Both the position numbers and the translations under genes were made by a program. DNA of 64,000 nt, from NCBI GenBank assembly GCA_003141245.1, contig PLLE01000043.1, positions 36,542-100,541 of the forward strand, written 5' to 3'. The DNA comes from Chloroflexota bacterium (lineage in GTDB: Bacteria > Chloroflexota > Limnocylindria > Limnocylindrales > CSP1-4). Of the stretch, positions 29,641 to 63,071 are shown in pieces; the first letter of the stretch is position 1; each line of letters opens with the position of its first letter. The notes beneath the pieces are model-generated. The model did not search any database. It saw only the letters and a list, made by a program, of their open reading frames with translations, and had not been told where the DNA came from.

Positions 29641-30540
29641 TCAGCCGGTCACGAGCAGACCGGCCGATCCCAGCGTCGCCAGCCAGCCGGCTCCCATGAC
29701 GACCACGCCGACCGCCTGAACCTCCCAGCCCAGCCGCCGTGCCCGCTCGTTCGGGGAGGCCGCAAGACCCAACCCGAGCCAGCCCAGCACCGCTCCTGCC
29801 AACTCAGCGGCCAGGCTTGCCGGAAGCGGCCCGACGACCACCGATGAGGTCACGACGGCCAGCTGCAAGAGCCCCAGGGTGAAGGCGGATCCGACCAGGG
29901 CGCGACCCCGCCCGAGTGCAGTCGCCACGGAGGCGGCCCCCGCCAGTAGATCTCTTTCGAGATCGGCCAGGGCATTCGCGAGGGCCAGTGTCGTGCCGGC
30001 CACGAATGCCAGGGGCACGATCCCCCAGAAGGCGGGAGACAGCGTGCCGGCGACTCCAAGCCACGCGTACACGGGCAGTAGCCCTACGCCGAGAGCGAAT
30101 GGTACCCAGGAGACGGCGGTCCCCTTGAGACGGAGGTCGTAGATGAGCCCGTCGGCGAGTCCCAACACGCCGACGGCAAACGCCGCTACCCCCACCGAGC
30201 CGGCGGCGCACAACCCCGCGGACGAGGCGACAACCAGGACCGCCACCGCATGGCGCGGATTCACCAGGCCGGCCGGGATTGGCTTGTCGGGACGGCTGAC
30301 TCGATCTCGGGGGGCGTCGGCGAGGTCGTTGGCGGCACCGATGGCGAACTGCAGGCCCAGCATCCCAAGCGCGAGCCGGACGGCGACAGAAGTCTCCGCG
30401 CCGGCGATCAGGGCAATCGTTGCCGCCGCGACAGCGTCCAGCGTCGACGGGAAGGGATGGACGAGACGAAAAAAGCCGACAAGGCGAGCGAGACCGCTCC
30501 GCCGCGGCGAGTCGGCCGTGCGAGACGCCGGATCAGACGT
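29641..30540 (-). CDS. UbiA family prenyltransferase; start probably non-canonical (ACG at 30540)
   Basis: RLVHPFPS, ANDLADAPRD..RPDKPIPAG, NALADLERD; multiple TM. The conserved-looking N-terminus lies upstream of the first ATG (30363). Confidence 0.8.
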   Translation of the reverse strand, partial: TSDPASRTADSPRRSGLARLVGFFRLVHPFPSTLDAVAAATIALIAGAETSVAVRLALGMLGLQFAIGAANDLADAPRDRVSRPDKPIPAGLVNPRHAVAVLVVASSAGLCAAGSVGVAAFAVGVLGLADGLIYDLRLKGTAVSWVPFALGVGLLPVYAWLGVAGTLSPAFWGIVPLAFVAGTTLALANALADLERDLLAGAASVATALGRGRALVGSAFTLGLLQLAVVTSSVVVGPLPASLAAELAGAVLGWLGLGLAASPNERARRLGWEVQAVGVVVMGAGWLATLGSAGLLVTG

Positions 30541-33759: not shown

Positions 33760-34599
33760 ATGACTCGAGACCGTCGTGCGACCGAGCCTTCGTCTCGGAT
33801 GACGGACACCGTGCCGCTCTTCGGACTGCGGCGGGTCGAGCAGATCATGGGCACCGCGATCGGGTTCGACGTACGCGACCCCGACATTCCCGGGGAGGCG
33901 CTCGACCGGGCATTCGATTACTTGCGCCAGGTCGACCTGCGCTTCAGCACCTACAAGCCCGAGAGCGAAGTCAGCCGCCTGAGCCGCGGCGAGATTGTCT
34001 CCGAGGACGAATACAGTCCGGAGCTGCGCCAGGTCCTGGAGCTGTGTGAGGAAGTACGTCAGACAAGCGACGGCTACTTCGACATCCGAGCACATCGATC
34101 CGGAGGCGGGCTGGATCCGTCCGGCCTCGTCAAGGGTTGGTCGCTCGAGGGCGCAGGCCGAATCCTCGAGGCCGCGGGAGCCCGCAACTTCTGCATCAAC
34201 GGCGGCGGCGACATCGTCGTGCGCGGCGAGGCCGCGCCGGCCACGCCCTGGCGAATCGGCATCCGACACCCGCTCCAGGCCGACAAGGTGGCCACGGTCG
34301 TGAGCGTCCGCGACGGGGCGATCGCCACGTCGGGCGCGTACGAGCGAGGCGAGCACGTGCGCGACCCCTTCACCGGGAAGGCGCCCGCCGGCGTGCTCAG
34401 CGTCACGATCGTCGGGCCGAGCCTGACCTACGCCGATGCCTACGCCACGGCCGCCTTCGCGATGGGACCGACCGGCCTTGCCTGGGTGGCCCGACTCGCA
34501 GGCTACGCCGGCTGCGCGATCACCGTCGACCCGGACGGTTCGAATGGACGCCTGACGTGGACCCCCGGCTTCGAGCGCTGCTTCGCCGACCACCGCTGA
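33760..34599 (+). CDS. apbE: ApbE family FAD:protein FMN transferase, no signal peptide
   Basis: IMGT, RFSTYKPESEVSRL, LDPSGLVKGW, INGGGDI, WRIGIRHP, IATSGAYERG, ADAYATA. ATG lies 6 nt after CATAAT. Confidence 0.9.
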   Translation: MTRDRRATEPSSRMTDTVPLFGLRRVEQIMGTAIGFDVRDPDIPGEALDRAFDYLRQVDLRFSTYKPESEVSRLSRGEIVSEDEYSPELRQVLELCEEVRQTSDGYFDIRAHRSGGGLDPSGLVKGWSLEGAGRILEAAGARNFCINGGGDIVVRGEAAPATPWRIGIRHPLQADKVATVVSVRDGAIATSGAYERGEHVRDPFTGKAPAGVLSVTIVGPSLTYADAYATAAFAMGPTGLAWVARLAGYAGCAITVDPDGSNGRLTWTPGFERCFADHR

Positions 34600-34669: not shown

Positions 34670-36037
34670 CTACCAGAGGAACGGTCGAATGCCCAGCGCC
34701 GACTGGGCGGCGATGGCCGCCAGATAGCCAGCCAGGAGCAAGAGCGCCACGACCATGTGCAGCTGGATGTTGGTCCCCATCGACGCCATGAGGGCGTAGG
34801 GGTTGTCGTAGAAGAGGATCAGACCGCCGTGAACCCGGCGGGCCAGCGGGACCGCCAGCAGCACTATGAGGGTGGGCACCGGCAACAGCCCGACCGCCAC
34901 TCCCCCGCCGACCGCCACGAATGCCGCGGCGGCGGCAACGTCCCAGCCGCGGATCACCGCCGCCTGCGACCAGCGCACCGGCAGCGTTCGCTTGCCCGCC
35001 TTCGCGTCGCCGGTCCGGTCGGGGATCTCATTCACATACAGGATGAGCATCACCAGCAGGGCAACGGGGATCGAGGCGACGAAGGCTTCCCAGGAGAGCG
35101 AGCCACGGGTCTGGACGACGTAGGCGCCGAGAAGCATCACCGGCCCGAACCCGATCGCGGTGGCAATCTCGCCCAGACCGCGATAGACCAGCTTGAACGG
35201 CGGCATGGTGTAGGCCAGGCTGATGAAGAGGCCGACAGCCGAGATGACGACCAGCGCCACGGACCCGCGCATGGCGAAGAGGGCCAGCCCCAACGCCCCG
35301 GCGAGGAGGTAGCAGCCGAGCGCCAGCAGCGACATGCCGCGCATGGAGATGAGCCCGTTCTGGAGGACGCGCGAGCCGCCGCTGAACTTGGTCGGCGTGG
35401 CGTTGGCGTCGTCGGCGCCCTGCATCGTGTCGAAGACGTCGTTGGCGACGTTGAGCCCGAAATGGACGACGCTGGCGGCCACGACGGTGATCAGCGCAGT
35501 CGCCGGGTCGAAGAACCCGGCCCGCGCCGCCACGGCCAGTCCGAGCAACACCGGCGCGAAGGTCGCGCTCAGGAACGGCGCCCGGGTCGCGCGAAAGAGC
35601 AGCCAGCCGGTCGAGAGCCGCGGACGAACCCTCCTACCGCGCTCGGCGGAGAGCGCCTCGAAGTAGCGACGGGCCTTGGGCACGTCGCGTTCGTAGGCGG
35701 CCGGGAGCGGCAGGTCGCGCTCATCCCAGGCCCACGTTCGGGTCACGCGAACGGCCAGGCGGCCGTGGGACTCGGCCGAGGCCGCGCCCCACGCAGTCAC
35801 GTGGCTGCGCTCGTCGAAGCCGCCCTGCAGGCCGGGCCGGATGTGGCTGCCCGTGACCGCGACGCTGGCACCGGTCGGAATCGCGAACCCGGTCGGGGCC
35901 GCGAATCGGACGATCCCCTCCCCCGCCCGGACCTCCGCCGCGACGACGACGTTGACCGGGTATCCGTCCTCTCCGACCCAGGCCAGGACCGCCTGCGGGA
36001 AATCCGCCAGCTTCGCGAGATCGTCGGTCGCGCTCAC
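34670..36037 (-). CDS. MenA-like prenyltransferase fused to an N-terminal split-barrel-like domain of about 140 aa
   Basis: C-terminal RATRAPFL, NVANDVFD...FSGGSRVL, YTMPPFKLVYRGLGE, NEIPDRTGDAKAGKRTL; N-terminal AVLAWVGEDGYPV resembles PNPOx folds. Confidence 0.85.
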   Translation of the reverse strand: MSATDDLAKLADFPQAVLAWVGEDGYPVNVVVAAEVRAGEGIVRFAAPTGFAIPTGASVAVTGSHIRPGLQGGFDERSHVTAWGAASAESHGRLAVRVTRTWAWDERDLPLPAAYERDVPKARRYFEALSAERGRRVRPRLSTGWLLFRATRAPFLSATFAPVLLGLAVAARAGFFDPATALITVVAASVVHFGLNVANDVFDTMQGADDANATPTKFSGGSRVLQNGLISMRGMSLLALGCYLLAGALGLALFAMRGSVALVVISAVGLFISLAYTMPPFKLVYRGLGEIATAIGFGPVMLLGAYVVQTRGSLSWEAFVASIPVALLVMLILYVNEIPDRTGDAKAGKRTLPVRWSQAAVIRGWDVAAAAAFVAVGGGVAVGLLPVPTLIVLLAVPLARRVHGGLILFYDNPYALMASMGTNIQLHMVVALLLLAGYLAAIAAQSALGIRPFLW

Positions 36038-36513
36038 CGGGCCGCCTCTGCCGTGTTCACCGCGGGTGCGCCGTCGGTTCGGCCGTCGGCCCAGTAGAGC
36101 GTCCGCTTGGGAGTGAGTTCGATCAGCGCCCGTTCAAAGATCAGCGGGAACCCCACGCGCGCCTTCAGCAGCGCCGGGATCGAGGGATCCTTGCGTCCGA
36201 TCTCGGGCAGCAGGCGCTCCCACCCGGAGTGAAGATCGTCCTCGATCACGCGCGCGTCGCCCTGGATCGTGGCTCGCTCGGTCCTGCCGGCCGACGTGGC
36301 CGGGTCGGTCACGGAGAGGCAGACCCTGGGGTTCGACTTGATGTGGCCGAGCTTTCGGCTGTCGAGCGCGCTCGAGGTCATGACAATGCGGTCGTCATCG
36401 AGGACCGGCACGAGCGGATAGGTCATCGGACGGCCGTCTTCCGCGACGACCGTCAACTCGCCGACGAGGGCAGCGTCCACCAGGCGCGCAACCGGATCAG
36501 GCAGCAAGGGCAC
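36034..36513 (-). CDS. Pyridoxamine 5'-phosphate oxidase-like (split-barrel) protein
   Basis: LTVVAEDGRPMTYP, SRKLGHIKSNPRVCLSV, TIQGDARV. SD GGAGA before GTG 36513; TACAAT upstream; stop overlaps the next start (GTGA). Confidence 0.85.
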   Translation of the reverse strand: MPLLPDPVARLVDAALVGELTVVAEDGRPMTYPLVPVLDDDRIVMTSSALDSRKLGHIKSNPRVCLSVTDPATSAGRTERATIQGDARVIEDDLHSGWERLLPEIGRKDPSIPALLKARVGFPLIFERALIELTPKRTLYWADGRTDGAPAVNTAEAAR

Positions 36514-36568
36514 GTTGATCTCCGAGACGGGACGACAATGGGAAGGTGGCCGCGCAGATTGTACGTGC

Positions 36569-37330
36569 CTAGCGGGCCCGGTCACGGTCCGGGGAGCCAC
36601 CGAAGAGGCGGACCGAAGCGGCGCTGGCCTCGTGCTGCTCCGTGGTGATCAACTGGCGGCGATCCGACGTGCTGTTGTGGGCGTACTCGGCGAGGGCCTT
36701 CTGCAGCGTCTCCAATCGGGCGAGCTGGACGGCCAGGACCCCGCTCCAACGGCTCTGCACTTCCTTCGGGCCGGCGGCCGCGGCAGTCCACAGCGCGCAC
36801 ATGTCGTCCAGGCAGATCTCGCCGCCGCCCAGCGCCGCGGACCACGCCGCATCCGCCGAGAGCTCCAGAAGCCGGCTCACCGCCGTCCGCGAGGCCTCCT
36901 CGGCCCGGGCGCATACGGGGCACCGGGGCGCGGCCAGTTCCGCCAGCCGACGCCCCTGCGCGGCGGCGTTCGCGCCTGAGAGCTTCTCCAGGGCCGCCAG
37001 GCGCCGCCGCAGGATGGCGTCCAGCAGAACCGCCGTAGCGAGCTGGCTGCTCGTCTGCAGCAGCTCCATCTTCGAGAGGCCGACGCTGTGCGGCTGGCAG
37101 AAGCCCACGCCCTTGTCCAGCTCTGCCCGGAAGCCCCTGTCCGTAGCCCCCTCGCGCGCCAGACCGCGCAGGGCCGCGTGGGAGGCCTCCTGGCGGGCAT
37201 CGCAGATCGGGCAGCGACCGCCCTCGAGGGCCTCGGCCAGGCGGATCTCCTCGAAATCGCGAGCGGGCAGCTTGCCCGGCTGCCCGCTCATCGGTCGAGT
37301 GTCGTTACGATCGGCCACGTCATCGGCCAA
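36569..37330 (-). CDS. Cys/His-rich protein, DUF6062-like
   Basis: Duplicated CPIC...FCQPH and CPVC...ICLDD modules. Confidence 0.7.
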   Translation of the reverse strand: MADDVADRNDTRPMSGQPGKLPARDFEEIRLAEALEGGRCPICDARQEASHAALRGLAREGATDRGFRAELDKGVGFCQPHSVGLSKMELLQTSSQLATAVLLDAILRRRLAALEKLSGANAAAQGRRLAELAAPRCPVCARAEEASRTAVSRLLELSADAAWSAALGGGEICLDDMCALWTAAAAGPKEVQSRWSGVLAVQLARLETLQKALAEYAHNSTSDRRQLITTEQHEASAASVRLFGGSPDRDRAR

Positions 37331-59499: not shown

Positions 59500-60489
59500 A
59501 TGGCCCAGGCGAAGATCGGCTACGCGGCAATGCTCGAGCAGTTCGGGCCGGCCGAAATACTGGATCTCTGCGCCCGGGCCGAGTCTGCCGGCTTTTCGGG
59601 CGTCATGGCCGCCGATCACTTCCAGCCGTGGGTCCCGCGCCAGGGCCAGGCCTCGTTCGTGTGGGAGGTCCTGGCGGTCGCCGGGGCACGCACCCGCGGC
59701 GACCTGGGACCCGGCGTGGCTTGCCCGTCGTTCCGGATGCATCCCGCCATCGTCGCCCAGGCCGCGGCGACGCTCGAGGTCATGTATCCGGGGCGAACGT
59801 GGCTGGGTCTTGGCTCCGGTGAGGCGCTCAACGAGCACGTCGTGGCCGGCTACTGGCCGGAGGTGCCGGAGCGCATCAACCGCATGTTCGAGGCGATCGA
59901 GATCATCGCCAAGCTCTTCAGCGGCAAAGAGGTCAAGCACGACGGCCGCTTCTTCAAGATGGAGACCTGCCGCCTTTGGACACTGCCGGAGAAGGCGCCC
60001 CCGATCTACATCGCCACGGCCGGCCCGGTGACCGCCAAGCGAACGGGTAAGTTCGCCGACGGGATCATCACCGTCGGCGCGCCGGAGGAGAAGATCGACG
60101 GCATCTTCGCAAAGTTCGCCGAAGGAGCGCGCGAGGGCGGCAAGGATCCGGCGACGATGCCGAAGATCCTGCAGCTCCACCTGTCCTGGGCCGAAACGGA
60201 TGCCGAGGCGGTCGCGAACGCGATCTCCGAATGGCCCAACGGCGGCATGCGCTTCCCCAAGCAGGACATCAGGTCGCCCAAGGACTTCGAGCAGGTGGCG
60301 GCACTGGTCCGGCCCGAGGACTTCACCGGTCGGATGCTCATGTCGGCCGACCCCGAGGTCCACCGCCGCGAGATCCAGAAGTTCCTCGACCTCGGCTTCG
60401 ACCAGATCTACCTGCACAACGTCGGCCGAAACCAGGCGGCCTGGCTCGACCTCTTCGGCCGCGAGGTGCTGCCGAAGCTGACGGCCTGA
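59500..60489 (+). CDS. F420-dependent LLM-class oxidoreductase (G6PDH-like)
   Basis: EQFGP, DHFQPW, HPAIVAQAAAT, LGLGSGEALNEH. Confidence 0.9.
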   Translation: MAQAKIGYAAMLEQFGPAEILDLCARAESAGFSGVMAADHFQPWVPRQGQASFVWEVLAVAGARTRGDLGPGVACPSFRMHPAIVAQAAATLEVMYPGRTWLGLGSGEALNEHVVAGYWPEVPERINRMFEAIEIIAKLFSGKEVKHDGRFFKMETCRLWTLPEKAPPIYIATAGPVTAKRTGKFADGIITVGAPEEKIDGIFAKFAEGAREGGKDPATMPKILQLHLSWAETDAEAVANAISEWPNGGMRFPKQDIRSPKDFEQVAALVRPEDFTGRMLMSADPEVHRREIQKFLDLGFDQIYLHNVGRNQAAWLDLFGREVLPKLTA

Positions 60490-60628
60490 GAGGCGGCCCT
60501 CGAGCGCGACCCGGAGCCGGTCATCGTGCGCCCAGACGAGCACCGCGTGAGAGACGCCTCGAAGCGACACCATCGTCGCCCGGCGCTACGCTTTCGGGAA
60601 CAGGTTTGGCCGCCAACTGGGAGGAGCG

Positions 60629-61579
60629 ATGCGGGTCGTTTGTCTGGCCGGTGGCGTCGGAGGCGCGAAGCTGGCCGACGGGCTCCAGCGCGCGCTCGAA
60701 CCCGGTGAGCTGACCGTCGTCGTCAACACCGGCGACGACTTTGAGCGGCACTCCCTGCTGGTCTGCCCCGACCAGGACACCGTGCTCTACACCCTGGCGG
60801 GGATCGCCGAGCCGGCTCAGGGCTGGGGAATCGCCGGCGAGACGTGGCAGGTCATGAGCCAGCTCGCTCGCCTCGGCGAAGAGACCTGGTTCCGCCTGGG
60901 CGACAAGGACGTCGCCACACACCTCTTCCGCACTGAGCGACTCCGCGGCGGCAAACGCCTGAGCGCCGTGGCGCTGGAGTTGTGCGCCGCGCTGGACGTG
61001 CCGTCGCGGATCCTGCCGATGGCCGACGAGCCCGTTCGAACGCGGGTCCGAACCGACGACGGCTGGCTCGACTTCCAGGACTACTTCGTCCGCCTGCGCC
61101 AGGCCCCCGAGGTACGCGAGGTCCGTTTCGAGGGCGCCGATCTCTCCTCGATCACCCCGGAGGTTGAGGAGGCGCTGGCGGGAGCCGAAGCCATCGTCGT
61201 GGCGCCATCGAATCCGATCGTCTCGATCGGTCCGATCCTGGCCGTTCCCGGGATCGACGAGGCGATAGCCGCCGCCAGGGCGCGCGGCGTTCGGAGCGTC
61301 GGCGTCTCCGGCATCGTCGGCGGGAAGGCGCTGCGCGGCCCGGCCGATCGAATGATGGCCAGCCTTGGCGACGAGCCGACGGCGCTCGGGGTCGCCCGCC
61401 GATATGCATCGATGGGGCTGCTGGACGTCTTCGTCCTCGACCGGCTCGACGAATCGCTCGCGAGAGACGTCATCGCGCTGGGGCTGGAGGTCGTCGTGAC
61501 CGAGACGGTGATGACCGACGTCGGCGCGCGAGTCCAGCTCGCGCGGGACGTCCTGGCCGCGACCCTGCCTCCCGCATGA
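60629..61579 (+). CDS. cofD: 2-phospho-L-lactate transferase
   Basis: LAGGVGGAKL, NTGDD, CPDQDTVLYTLAG, WFRLGDKD, FQDYFV, PSNPIVSIGPIL. Confidence 0.95.
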   Translation: MRVVCLAGGVGGAKLADGLQRALEPGELTVVVNTGDDFERHSLLVCPDQDTVLYTLAGIAEPAQGWGIAGETWQVMSQLARLGEETWFRLGDKDVATHLFRTERLRGGKRLSAVALELCAALDVPSRILPMADEPVRTRVRTDDGWLDFQDYFVRLRQAPEVREVRFEGADLSSITPEVEEALAGAEAIVVAPSNPIVSIGPILAVPGIDEAIAAARARGVRSVGVSGIVGGKALRGPADRMMASLGDEPTALGVARRYASMGLLDVFVLDRLDESLARDVIALGLEVVVTETVMTDVGARVQLARDVLAATLPPA

Positions 61580-62223
61580 GCGGAGCCGACCTCTCCCGGA
61601 TCGTGGCGATCGTGCCCGTGCGATCGCTGAGCGGAGCCAAGTCGCGCCTCGGCGAGCCGCTCGACCCCGAGGAGCGGGCCGAGCTGATCCTGGCCCTCCT
61701 GCGCCGGACCGTGTCCGCGGCCCTGGCAGCGCGGCGGCTTGACGGTGTGGCCGTCGTCTCCCAGGACGCGGAGCTGCTGACCCAGGCCCGCGCCATGGGC
61801 GCGGCATCGTTCCTGCAGGAGAGCGACGGGCTCAACGAGGGGCTCTCCGAGACGCGAGATTCGGCCTGTACCGAGGCCACCGCCGTGCTGGTGCTGCCGG
61901 CGGACCTGCCTGCGGTCAGCGCCGAGGCGATCGAACGGCTCGTCGAGGCGGGCGAGGAAACGGCCCGGCGCGAGCCCGAGCGGCCGGTCGTCGTGCTGGT
62001 CCCCGATCGCCATGGCACTGGTACGAATGCGTTGCTCGTGGCGCCGCCGAATGCGATCGAGTTCCGCTTCGGCGAGGGGAGTCGGGCGGCGCACGCGGCC
62101 GAGGCGATCGCTGCCGGAGCCACGTACGTAGAGTTGGACGGGCCGCTGGCGTTCGATCTCGACACGCCCGAAGACCTGCGTGAGGCCGACATGGGCGGTC
62201 TCGACCACGAGGCGGGCCGGTGA
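61576..62223 (+). CDS. cofC: 2-phospho-L-lactate/PEP guanylyltransferase
   Basis: VPVRSLSGAKSRL, GLN, PADLP, PDRHGTGTNAL, FRFGEGS..AH, DLDTPEDL. Confidence 0.93.
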   Translation: MSGADLSRIVAIVPVRSLSGAKSRLGEPLDPEERAELILALLRRTVSAALAARRLDGVAVVSQDAELLTQARAMGAASFLQESDGLNEGLSETRDSACTEATAVLVLPADLPAVSAEAIERLVEAGEETARREPERPVVVLVPDRHGTGTNALLVAPPNAIEFRFGEGSRAAHAAEAIAAGATYVELDGPLAFDLDTPEDLREADMGGLDHEAGR

Positions 62224-63071
62224 GCACGGACGGCAGGAGCGCGCGCGAGGCACCCGGTTCGGCCGGGAGCTCATCGAGGGCACCGCTGCCCGCGGAGCCT
62301 CTGCCGGGCGGTCGCCTCGAGGTCTTCGCACTCGACGGGATCCCGGAGATCCGGCCCGGCGACGACCTGTCGGCGCTGCTCGTCTCGGCCCTCCGGGCGG
62401 CGTCCGAGGTGCTGCCTCTGCGCACGGACGACGTCCTGGTCGTCACCCAGAAGATCGTCTCGAAGGCCGAGGGGGCGATCGTCGACCTGACGGCCGTCGA
62501 GCCGCGTCCCGAGGCCATCGAGTTCGCCCAACGCTGGGACCGCGACGCCCGCCAGCTCGAGGTCGTCCTGCGCCAGGCCCGCCGCGTCGTCCGGTGGGAG
62601 CGCGGCGTCCTCATCACCGAAACGCCCCACGGCTTCGTCTGCGCAAACGGCGGCGTCGACGCCTCCAACGTAGGGCCGCAGAGCGGCAACATCGTGACCC
62701 TCCTGCCGAAGGACCCCGACGCCTCCGCCGCTCGAATCCGCGCCGCCGTCGCCGAGGCGCTCGGTGTGGATGTGCCGGTCATCATCTCGGACAGCTTCGG
62801 TCGCCCGTGGCGATGGGGAATCATGGACATCGCGATCGGCGTAAGCGGCATGAAGCCGCTCGACGACATGCGCGGCACGCCGGACGCCGACGGGCGCGTC
62901 ATGCACAGCACAGTCCGCGCCACTGCCGACGAGATCGCCACGGCCGCCGAACTGGCCCTCGGCAAGACCGCACGCCGGCCGGCCGCCATCGTCCGGGGCG
63001 CCAACCCCAGCCGCGGCGAGGGCCGGATCGCCGACGTACTGATGCCGAGCGAGTTCGACCTCTTCCGATGA
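62220..63071 (+). CDS. cofE: F420-0:gamma-glutamyl ligase
   Basis: IPEIRPGDDL, TQKIVSKAEG, ANGGVDASN, LPKDPDASA, SDSFGRPWR, DLFR. Confidence 0.95.
   Translation: MSTDGRSAREAPGSAGSSSRAPLPAEPLPGGRLEVFALDGIPEIRPGDDLSALLVSALRAASEVLPLRTDDVLVVTQKIVSKAEGAIVDLTAVEPRPEAIEFAQRWDRDARQLEVVLRQARRVVRWERGVLITETPHGFVCANGGVDASNVGPQSGNIVTLLPKDPDASAARIRAAVAEALGVDVPVIISDSFGRPWRWGIMDIAIGVSGMKPLDDMRGTPDADGRVMHSTVRATADEIATAAELALGKTARRPAAIVRGANPSRGEGRIADVLMPSEFDLFR

Follow-up and report, generated by a model that had tools for sequence, protein, structure and literature searches.

A conserved split-barrel pair joined to a MenA/UBIAD1-like prenyltransferase in Limnocylindria, other bacteria and archaea, with a possible role in quinone-ring salvage

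Prenylation requires an electron-rich quinol. The animal enzyme UBIAD1, which converts menadione to MK-4, was inactive without DTT, and its authors ascribed this to the reduction of menadione (PMC4398444, partial text). Split barrels of the FDOR-A type and several of the FDOR-B type reduce quinones with F420H2 (PMC8498797, partial text), and the retention of menA and menG without the upstream genes is a known state in lactobacilli (PMC8303990, partial text).

We analysed a window of 64,000 nucleotides from a Limnocylindrales bacterium of the lineage CSP1-4, in which an initial annotation had seen a candidate quinone- or cofactor-modifying system made of a split-barrel protein and a fusion of a second barrel with a MenA-type prenyltransferase. 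Limnocylindria are common soil and freshwater bacteria. The architecture and genomic context support well a real, conserved and undescribed variant of MenA/UBIAD1 with a pair of split barrels; its chemistry we infer. In the main texts of the largely open-access literature searched, we found no description of this architecture or of its hosts, and the source databases label the fusion proteins plainly as MenA or prenyltransferase.

The two-gene locus

Translation of the open reading frames confirmed the two-gene unit described in the initial annotation. Both genes lie on the minus strand and start with GTG: the partner gene (159 aa, 36034-36513) and the fusion gene (455 aa, 34670-36037), whose start overlaps the stop codon of the partner in a GTGA sequence (36034..36037, minus strand), an arrangement through which translation of the two may be coupled. 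A GGAG sequence 6 nt before the partner GTG (36520..36523, minus strand) is its likely ribosome-binding site. The claimed promoter with a TACAAT box was also found upstream of the partner, as a sigma-70-like GTGACC-16-TACAAT (36558..36585, minus strand) that agrees with the consensus at 9 of 12 positions; one such site was present and 0.1 were expected, and it is promoter-like by consensus match only.

Across phyla, the partner was the sole gene conserved beside the module in the clustered neighbourhoods. An ApbE flavin transferase gene (window 33763-34599) is convergent with the fusion and adjoined the module only in 23 loci of close lineage; a gene for a DUF6062 protein with two CxxC-type motifs (window 36569-37330), upstream on the same strand, did so only in 20. 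Another UbiA-family gene (window 29641-30363) is not MenA-like and gave weak matches to the DGGGP synthase and chlorophyll synthase models; its conservation extends to one Limnocylindrales group. We considered and rejected a Listeria-type DmkA/FmnB system, because ApbE, DUF6062, the ABC-2 transporter and this UbiA gene are kept within one Limnocylindria group only and not across phyla. Metatranscriptome contigs from related strains were likewise rejected as evidence of expression: they span the whole region, neighbours included, and therefore give no sign of expression of the module.

The free and the fused split barrel

The partner (36034..36513, minus strand) is a PNPOx/FDOR-B-like split barrel according to Pfam, NCBIfam and sequence matches, in keeping with the flavin- or F420-binding type proposed for it earlier. 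It matched PF01243 PNPOx_N with E 3.7e-11, and its best NCBIfam matches were F420-PPOX TIGR models, at scores below threshold (the best, TIGR03618, 45 bits vs a cut-off of 79). The best sequence matches were Rv2991 and MSMEG_3380. Residues S47, S48, K54, R119 and R128 were invariant in 69 of 69 paired relatives, and W98 was kept as well. On the basis of FDOR structures, these five are putative binding residues for the phosphate of flavin or F420, with K54 presumably at the flavin-phosphate position.

The first 140 residues of the fusion (35618..36037, minus strand) were studied by AlphaFold2 modelling, structure search and alignment. Pfam gave no family for this part of the 455-aa protein, PNPOx_N was not matched by the N-domains of 52 of 53 members (the remaining one gave E 0.2), a PDB profile search with the N-domain gave nothing, the Atlas matches were all below 0.9, and an hhalign comparison with the partner reached only probability 30, E 5e-4. 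The AlphaFold2 model, built from 53 sequences (pLDDT 91, pTM 0.76), has a truncated split barrel at residues 1-108 followed by a helix at 111-133 toward the membrane domain. The top Foldseek match of the model was the F420-binding FDOR MSMEG_6526 (E 4e-5). The VIA search matched PaiB (Z 11.9, rmsd 3.0, 106 aligned), MSMEG_5243 (Z 10.8), NimA (Z 10.6) and MSMEG_6526 (Z 10.3, rmsd 2.3, 98 aligned, 26% identity), and nearly all of the 50 matches listed were split barrels or close folds. AlphaFold2, Foldseek and VIA thus agree on the second, degenerate split barrel that had been suspected at this position, and residues 1-108 can be confidently predicted to form a six-stranded PNPOx/FDOR split barrel missed by Pfam. 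In P0006, P0012, P0046, P0053 and many Limnocylindrales relatives a Pro/Ala/Glu-rich leader of 60-140 aa precedes the barrel; this leader is absent from the 455-aa protein.

In the model, strands 3 and 4 of the N-domain follow each other without a helix, at the place where K54 sits in the partner, and the invariant residues of the N-domain are G25, P27, G73, R77, W104 and Y125 (69 paired sequences). The complementary invariant residues of the partner and the N-domain would fit a single cofactor site in an asymmetric dimer. The missing cofactor helix also agrees with a non-catalytic barrel pair, which would capture a scarce aromatic precursor (or a flavin or heme signal) and deliver it to the prenyltransferase or regulate the enzyme, and the structural neighbours of the N-domain include such non-redox binders as the GluTR-binding protein and heme-binding barrels. 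The invariance of the five partner residues in every pair argues against this role, which we consider somewhat unlikely.

The initial annotation had allowed that the fusion might be unique to one assembly, and the distribution survey showed otherwise. The N-domain as query gave 69 protein clusters, all with UbiA, and a profile search of all representatives gave 195 matches at E <=0.001. A GTDB scan yielded 71 loci in several phyla, which by their record titles belong to Limnocylindria and other Chloroflexota (including Dehalococcoidia), Actinomycetota (Gaiellaceae and others), Caldarchaeales and Bathyarchaeia. The N-domain was present in 68 of the 71 (66 whole fusions, 2 frameshifted); two of the other three are prenyltransferases of the same clade without barrels and one is cut. 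Wherever flanking DNA was available (65 N-domain loci), the partner lay directly upstream, whole in 64 and split into two pieces in 1; the other 3 of the 68 end within 420 nt upstream of the fusion. In a sample of 201 genomes of the window's class, the N-domain occurred in 58, being patchy and not universal: 19 of 61 in the window's own family, 38 of 66 in family f4, 1 of 66 in f3 and 0 of 7 in the small-genome family f2. The class-sample counts include unpublished genomes (the carriers G311, the only one in f3, and G322, and in the cofD count G286, G295, G305 and G358), and in all of our counts the genomes are MAGs and kin are not independent. In G048 and G049, whose same-clade prenyltransferases have no barrels, neither cofE nor the partner was detected.

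Of 151 Bathyarchaeia, 7 have the N-domain as a protein of its own, 132-135 aa long and encoded directly after the partner with no adjoining prenyltransferase. All seven hold a close MenA-like ortholog elsewhere (at least 65% identity to the G148 copy; five whole, two partial at contig ends). No barrel pair was detected in one further genome with the ortholog, and in 39 others the MenA-like genes are more distant and the N-domain is absent. The seven share gene neighbourhoods and may be one lineage. At L138:4752-7900, L139:6198-9354 and L140:5130-9737, all in free-pair Bathyarchaeia, the MenA-like gene points away from two others, one of the geranylgeranyl-reductase family and one of 184-189 aa that matches no Pfam family.

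A pair that stands alone in these genomes could be a mere passenger of the enzyme in the others, that is, an FDOR pair with a function of its own for which the MenA domain serves as a membrane anchor, such as an F420H2:menaquinone reductase feeding respiration; Ddn passes F420H2 electrons to menaquinone (PMC8498797, partial text). We regard this as very improbable, as the prenyltransferase motifs are strictly kept and barrels are fused to the same clade in two domain orders. These orders are seen in proteins that carry both barrels in a single chain. The NCBI records P0170 and P0171 (53% identical) contain the N-domain, a second barrel and the prenyltransferase, and P0070/P0303 combine these parts in a different domain order. 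The second barrel of P0170/P0171 has no Lys equivalent to K54, which favours the non-catalytic capture or sensing role, and a search with the P0170 barrel matched only P0170 itself. Most partner-first triple fusions among the representatives (P0129, P0140, P0104, P0210 and others) were rejected as out of frame, likely through sequencing frameshifts across the overlap, and only P0070/P0303 and P0170/P0171 were counted as tandem fusions.

For P0070, a natural tandem record, residues 1-297 were modelled as a single chain from 10 noisy rows, with pLDDT 72 and pTM 0.68. This pTM appears to lie above the expectation for two freely placed domains, moderate evidence from an uncontrolled model to which likeness to solved dimers could contribute; in a structure search no solved tandem-barrel chain matched both barrels of the model. 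A putative heterodimer of the two barrels is thus supported indirectly, by their obligate adjacency, the split pair of Bathyarchaeia, the tandem fusions, the complementary residues and this moderate model. The correlation between partner and N-domain identities (r 0.95) was not used as support, since shared descent predicts the same.

The prenyltransferase domain and the quinone genes of its hosts

The rest of the fusion (residues 141-455; 34670..35617, minus strand) is a MenA-like UbiA-family prenyltransferase domain by Pfam, NCBIfam and trees, with UbiA PF01040 at residues 160-400. The claim of an intact MenA-type domain held for the UbiA fold and both Asp-rich motifs; it did not hold for MenA in the strict sense, as the domain lies below the MenA cut-offs and in a separate clade. 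In the first motif, N196-x-x-N199-D200-x-x-D203 (35429..35452, minus strand), N196, N199 and D200 are invariant in 52 aligned rows and D203 is kept in at least 90%. The second, N336-E-I-P-D340-x-x-x-D344 (35006..35032, minus strand), stands where men-operon MenA has NNLRD, and both motifs are intact and conserved in the 52 aligned relatives. Every best family match of the prenyltransferase was a MenA model, and no member scored reaches the MenA cut-off: the fusion gave 134 bits vs a cut-off of 264 with its best NCBIfam match, NF004751, and 75 vs 102 with TIGR00751. The clade relatives L138 and P0170 do reach the TIGR00751 cut-off.

Two quick maximum-likelihood trees of 57 and 50 rows were built with IQ-TREE, midpoint-rooted and with SH-aLRT as the sole support measure; E. 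coli is a long branch in them. The fused domains form one clade (SH-aLRT 98-99) within a wider group that includes the Bathyarchaeia and P0170 enzymes, apart from E. coli MenA and the MenAs found in men operons of the window's class (SH-aLRT 99-100). On the acceptor side the fused clade has RxPF, mostly H before the first motif, a GGSR loop and NE[IV]PD; the corresponding motifs of E. coli and men-operon MenA are RPxTL, Q and NNLRD. The nearest solved sequence was UBIAD1 (PDB 8djk, E 3e-13).

The host survey covered 50 genomes, our own and those of 49 of the 71 loci (48 with barrels, 2 with the bare enzyme), and overlaps with the class sample. It was found that the 48 carriers mostly have neither menB (above cut-off in 1 of 48) nor a futalosine marker (MqnA/D family, 2 clear and 1 weak). 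The F420 gene cofE was present in 46 of 48, the FO synthase gene cofH in 8 of 48 and cofG in none of the 5 carriers tested. Among Limnocylindria-group carriers cofH was found in 0 of 22 tested, which leaves the enzymes of the F420 tail unaccompanied by an FO synthase. The class sample has menB in 5 of the 58 carriers and in 22 of the 143 non-carriers, the figures for the window's own family being 3 of 19 and 21 of 42; a futalosine marker occurred in none of its 201 genomes, and 174 of the 201 had neither. In the same sample cofD occurred in 157 genomes overall and in 57 of the 58 carriers, and the two carrier families have it regardless of the module (60 of 60 genomes in one, 65 of 66 in the other). 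The lack of both known ring pathways in most carriers points to ring salvage or an unknown ring. One carrier, G216, retains the fusion in addition to a full men operon that includes a menA.

The CSP1-4 genome itself (G000, 92% complete) contains menG, nuo genes and one polyprenyl synthase, whose nearest models are short-chain GGPP types; there was no match to menB, menD or the MqnA/D family, and cofG, cofH and heme-copper oxidase subunit I (COX1) were not found in it. Given its separate clade and the absence of menB, menD and mqnA-D matches in this genome, the fusion is not the housekeeping MenA of a men operon, which speaks against the ordinary housekeeping enzyme that the initial annotation had named as an alternative. 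The claimed cofC, cofD and cofE are all in the window and reach the TIGR cut-offs; by profile matches an Fgd-family LLM gene, cofD, cofC and cofE occupy 59500..63071 on the plus strand, outside the two-gene unit. The near-constant cofD of carriers and the FDOR-like folds make F420 a plausible cofactor; against it, most carriers have no FO synthase, and cofD is widespread in the lineage in any case. We found no paper on FO scavenging in the full-text literature. Elsewhere in the same genome, a further Pyridox_ox_2 split-barrel gene (L136:7891-8568; G000:C36) overlaps the start of the only polyprenyl synthase gene.

The CSP1-4 genome has three UbiA genes. Of the two besides the fusion gene only one is MenA-like, and its product is joined to a Mer-like F420-type domain. 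This Mer-like LLM/MenA-like fusion (G000:C46:40042-42165; L001:220-2346) is followed by an Rce1/CPBP gene and was whole in 8 of 50 genomes searched; in the Caldarchaeales carriers G029, G030, G044 and G046, Mer-like, MenA-like and Rce1-like are three adjacent genes. Class genomes without the barrel module also hold another MenA-like gene (5 of 5 checked): two have LLM fusions, G210 has a PAS-like fusion, and the genes of G273 and G360 fall in a separate clade. In G210, a small-genome member of Limnocylindria, the PAS-like domain, recognised by motifs, shares a chain with a MenA-like prenyltransferase that belongs to the wider clade described above (L181:1420-2688). A PAS-like domain at the position of the barrel favours capture or sensing and implies that accessory domains need not be redox enzymes, whereas the Mer-like domain of the parallel fusion has an oxidoreductase fold, which speaks against such a role. 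The Mer-like/MenA-like pairing appears to be a second pairing of a redox fold with MenA, and we count it for the salvage reading discussed below.

It is also conceivable that the module prenylates a ring other than a naphthoquinone (a phenazine, a deazaflavin or flavin derivative, or another aromatic) and so makes a new membrane electron carrier. The carriers tested have complex I (5 of 5) and heme-copper oxidase (4 of 5), yet most have no known ring pathway; the acceptor-side motifs of the clade are not those of men-operon MenA; the occurrence of cofCDE in the absence of cofGH calls for an explanation; and UbiA-family enzymes can prenylate phenazines, as in the case of Mpz10 (PMC4044012, partial text). 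Mpz10, however, lies outside the MenA group according to the same partial text, the best family matches of the present enzyme are all MenA models, no biosynthetic gene accompanies the module in different phyla, and menG is retained in G000 and G205. We therefore judge a different ring to be unlikely. The same low probability attaches to the broader proposal that the barrel-MenA and the parallel Mer-like-MenA modules both prenylate a ring from outside the men and futalosine routes, which would give the abundant Chloroflexota of soil and the archaea of hot springs an undescribed carrier or a third route to a respiratory quinone.

The modified menaquinone product suggested in the initial annotation found no support. 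A redox step after prenylation, yielding such a product or reducing demethylmenaquinone for MenG, has a precedent in NDC1, a dedicated reductase acting before methylation in phylloquinone synthesis (PMC5030760, partial text); some carriers also hold a full ring pathway, and the unfused Bathyarchaeia ortholog adjoins a geranylgeranyl-reductase-family gene. Nevertheless, none of the clustered neighbourhoods has menG next to the module, the menG match falls below its cut-off in 3 of the 5 carriers tested, and there is no sign of a modified product, so that a step at this stage seems decidedly unlikely.

Proposed ring salvage and comparison with known systems

The reading that we tentatively prefer, giving it slightly less than an even chance, is that an asymmetric barrel heterodimer reduces a scavenged naphthoquinone for UBIAD1-like prenylation. 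It is favoured by the need of UBIAD1 for a reductant, the reduction of quinones by FDORs and the known state in which only menA and menG are kept, and by the menG, polyprenyl synthase and nuo genes of the CSP1-4 genome. The free and the fused barrel would form an asymmetric heterodimer with one cofactor site, most likely for F420 and possibly for FMN, and dock at the cytoplasmic face of the membrane domain. There they would reduce an oxidised, scavenged ring of the 1,4-naphthoquinone type, such as menadione or oxidised DHNA, to the quinol. The MenA/UBIAD1-like domain would prenylate this quinol with Mg-polyprenyl diphosphate, and MenG, where present, would methylate the product. Rings scavenged from oxic or mixed surroundings arrive oxidised, so a tethered reductase would solve the supply of quinol. 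Since FO synthase is rare in the carriers, either F420 would need to be salvaged too or another cofactor would serve. Our data establish the fold, the conservation and co-occurrence of the parts, the intact catalytic motifs and the scarcity of ring-pathway markers; the binding between the barrels, the cofactor, the reductase activity and the substrate are all parts that we infer. Against ring salvage stand the missing Lys in the second barrel of P0170/P0171, the occurrence of the prenyltransferase without barrels (G048 and G049 in the same clade and the 39 further MenA-like genes of Bathyarchaeia), the presence of menB in 5 carriers and of futalosine genes in 2, the sub-cut-off MenG matches and the absence of any member reaching the MenA cut-off.

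At stake is the source of the membrane electron carrier in Limnocylindria and in most Caldarchaeales and Bathyarchaeia carriers, in most of which neither menB nor a futalosine marker is found. The module ranges from soil bacteria to hot-spring archaea and is small, conserved and expressible, which makes the question testable. If the salvage reading is true, the two genes would be a bacterial and archaeal counterpart of vitamin K3-to-K2 salvage that brings a dedicated reductase, and would tie F420-type chemistry to the supply and cross-feeding of quinones.

Among described systems, the fusion resembles E. coli MenA (b3930; models TIGR00751 and PRK06080) in its UbiA fold, in both Asp-rich motifs and in its best family matches, with 28% identity over 219 aa. 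It differs from MenA in falling below every MenA cut-off, in its separate clade and acceptor-side motifs, in the extra barrel domain and obligate partner, and in hosts that are mostly without DHNA synthesis. With UBIAD1 it shares His instead of Gln before the first motif and, presumably, action on a salvaged ring that requires reduction (PMC4398444, partial text); UBIAD1, in contrast, has no fused or dedicated barrel, and identity is low. Both barrels have the fold of the FDOR reductases (Ddn of FDOR-A; MSMEG_3380, MSMEG_6526, Rv2074, Rv1155 and Rv2991 of FDOR-B), but the partner is below the TIGR cut-offs, most hosts are without FO synthase, and the two barrels apparently form a heterodimer in which one subunit is degenerate and attached to an enzyme of the membrane. 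NDC1/NdbB is likewise a dedicated reductase serving prenylquinone synthesis (PMC5030760, partial text); unlike the module described here, it has a type II NADH dehydrogenase fold, acts after prenylation and is not fused.
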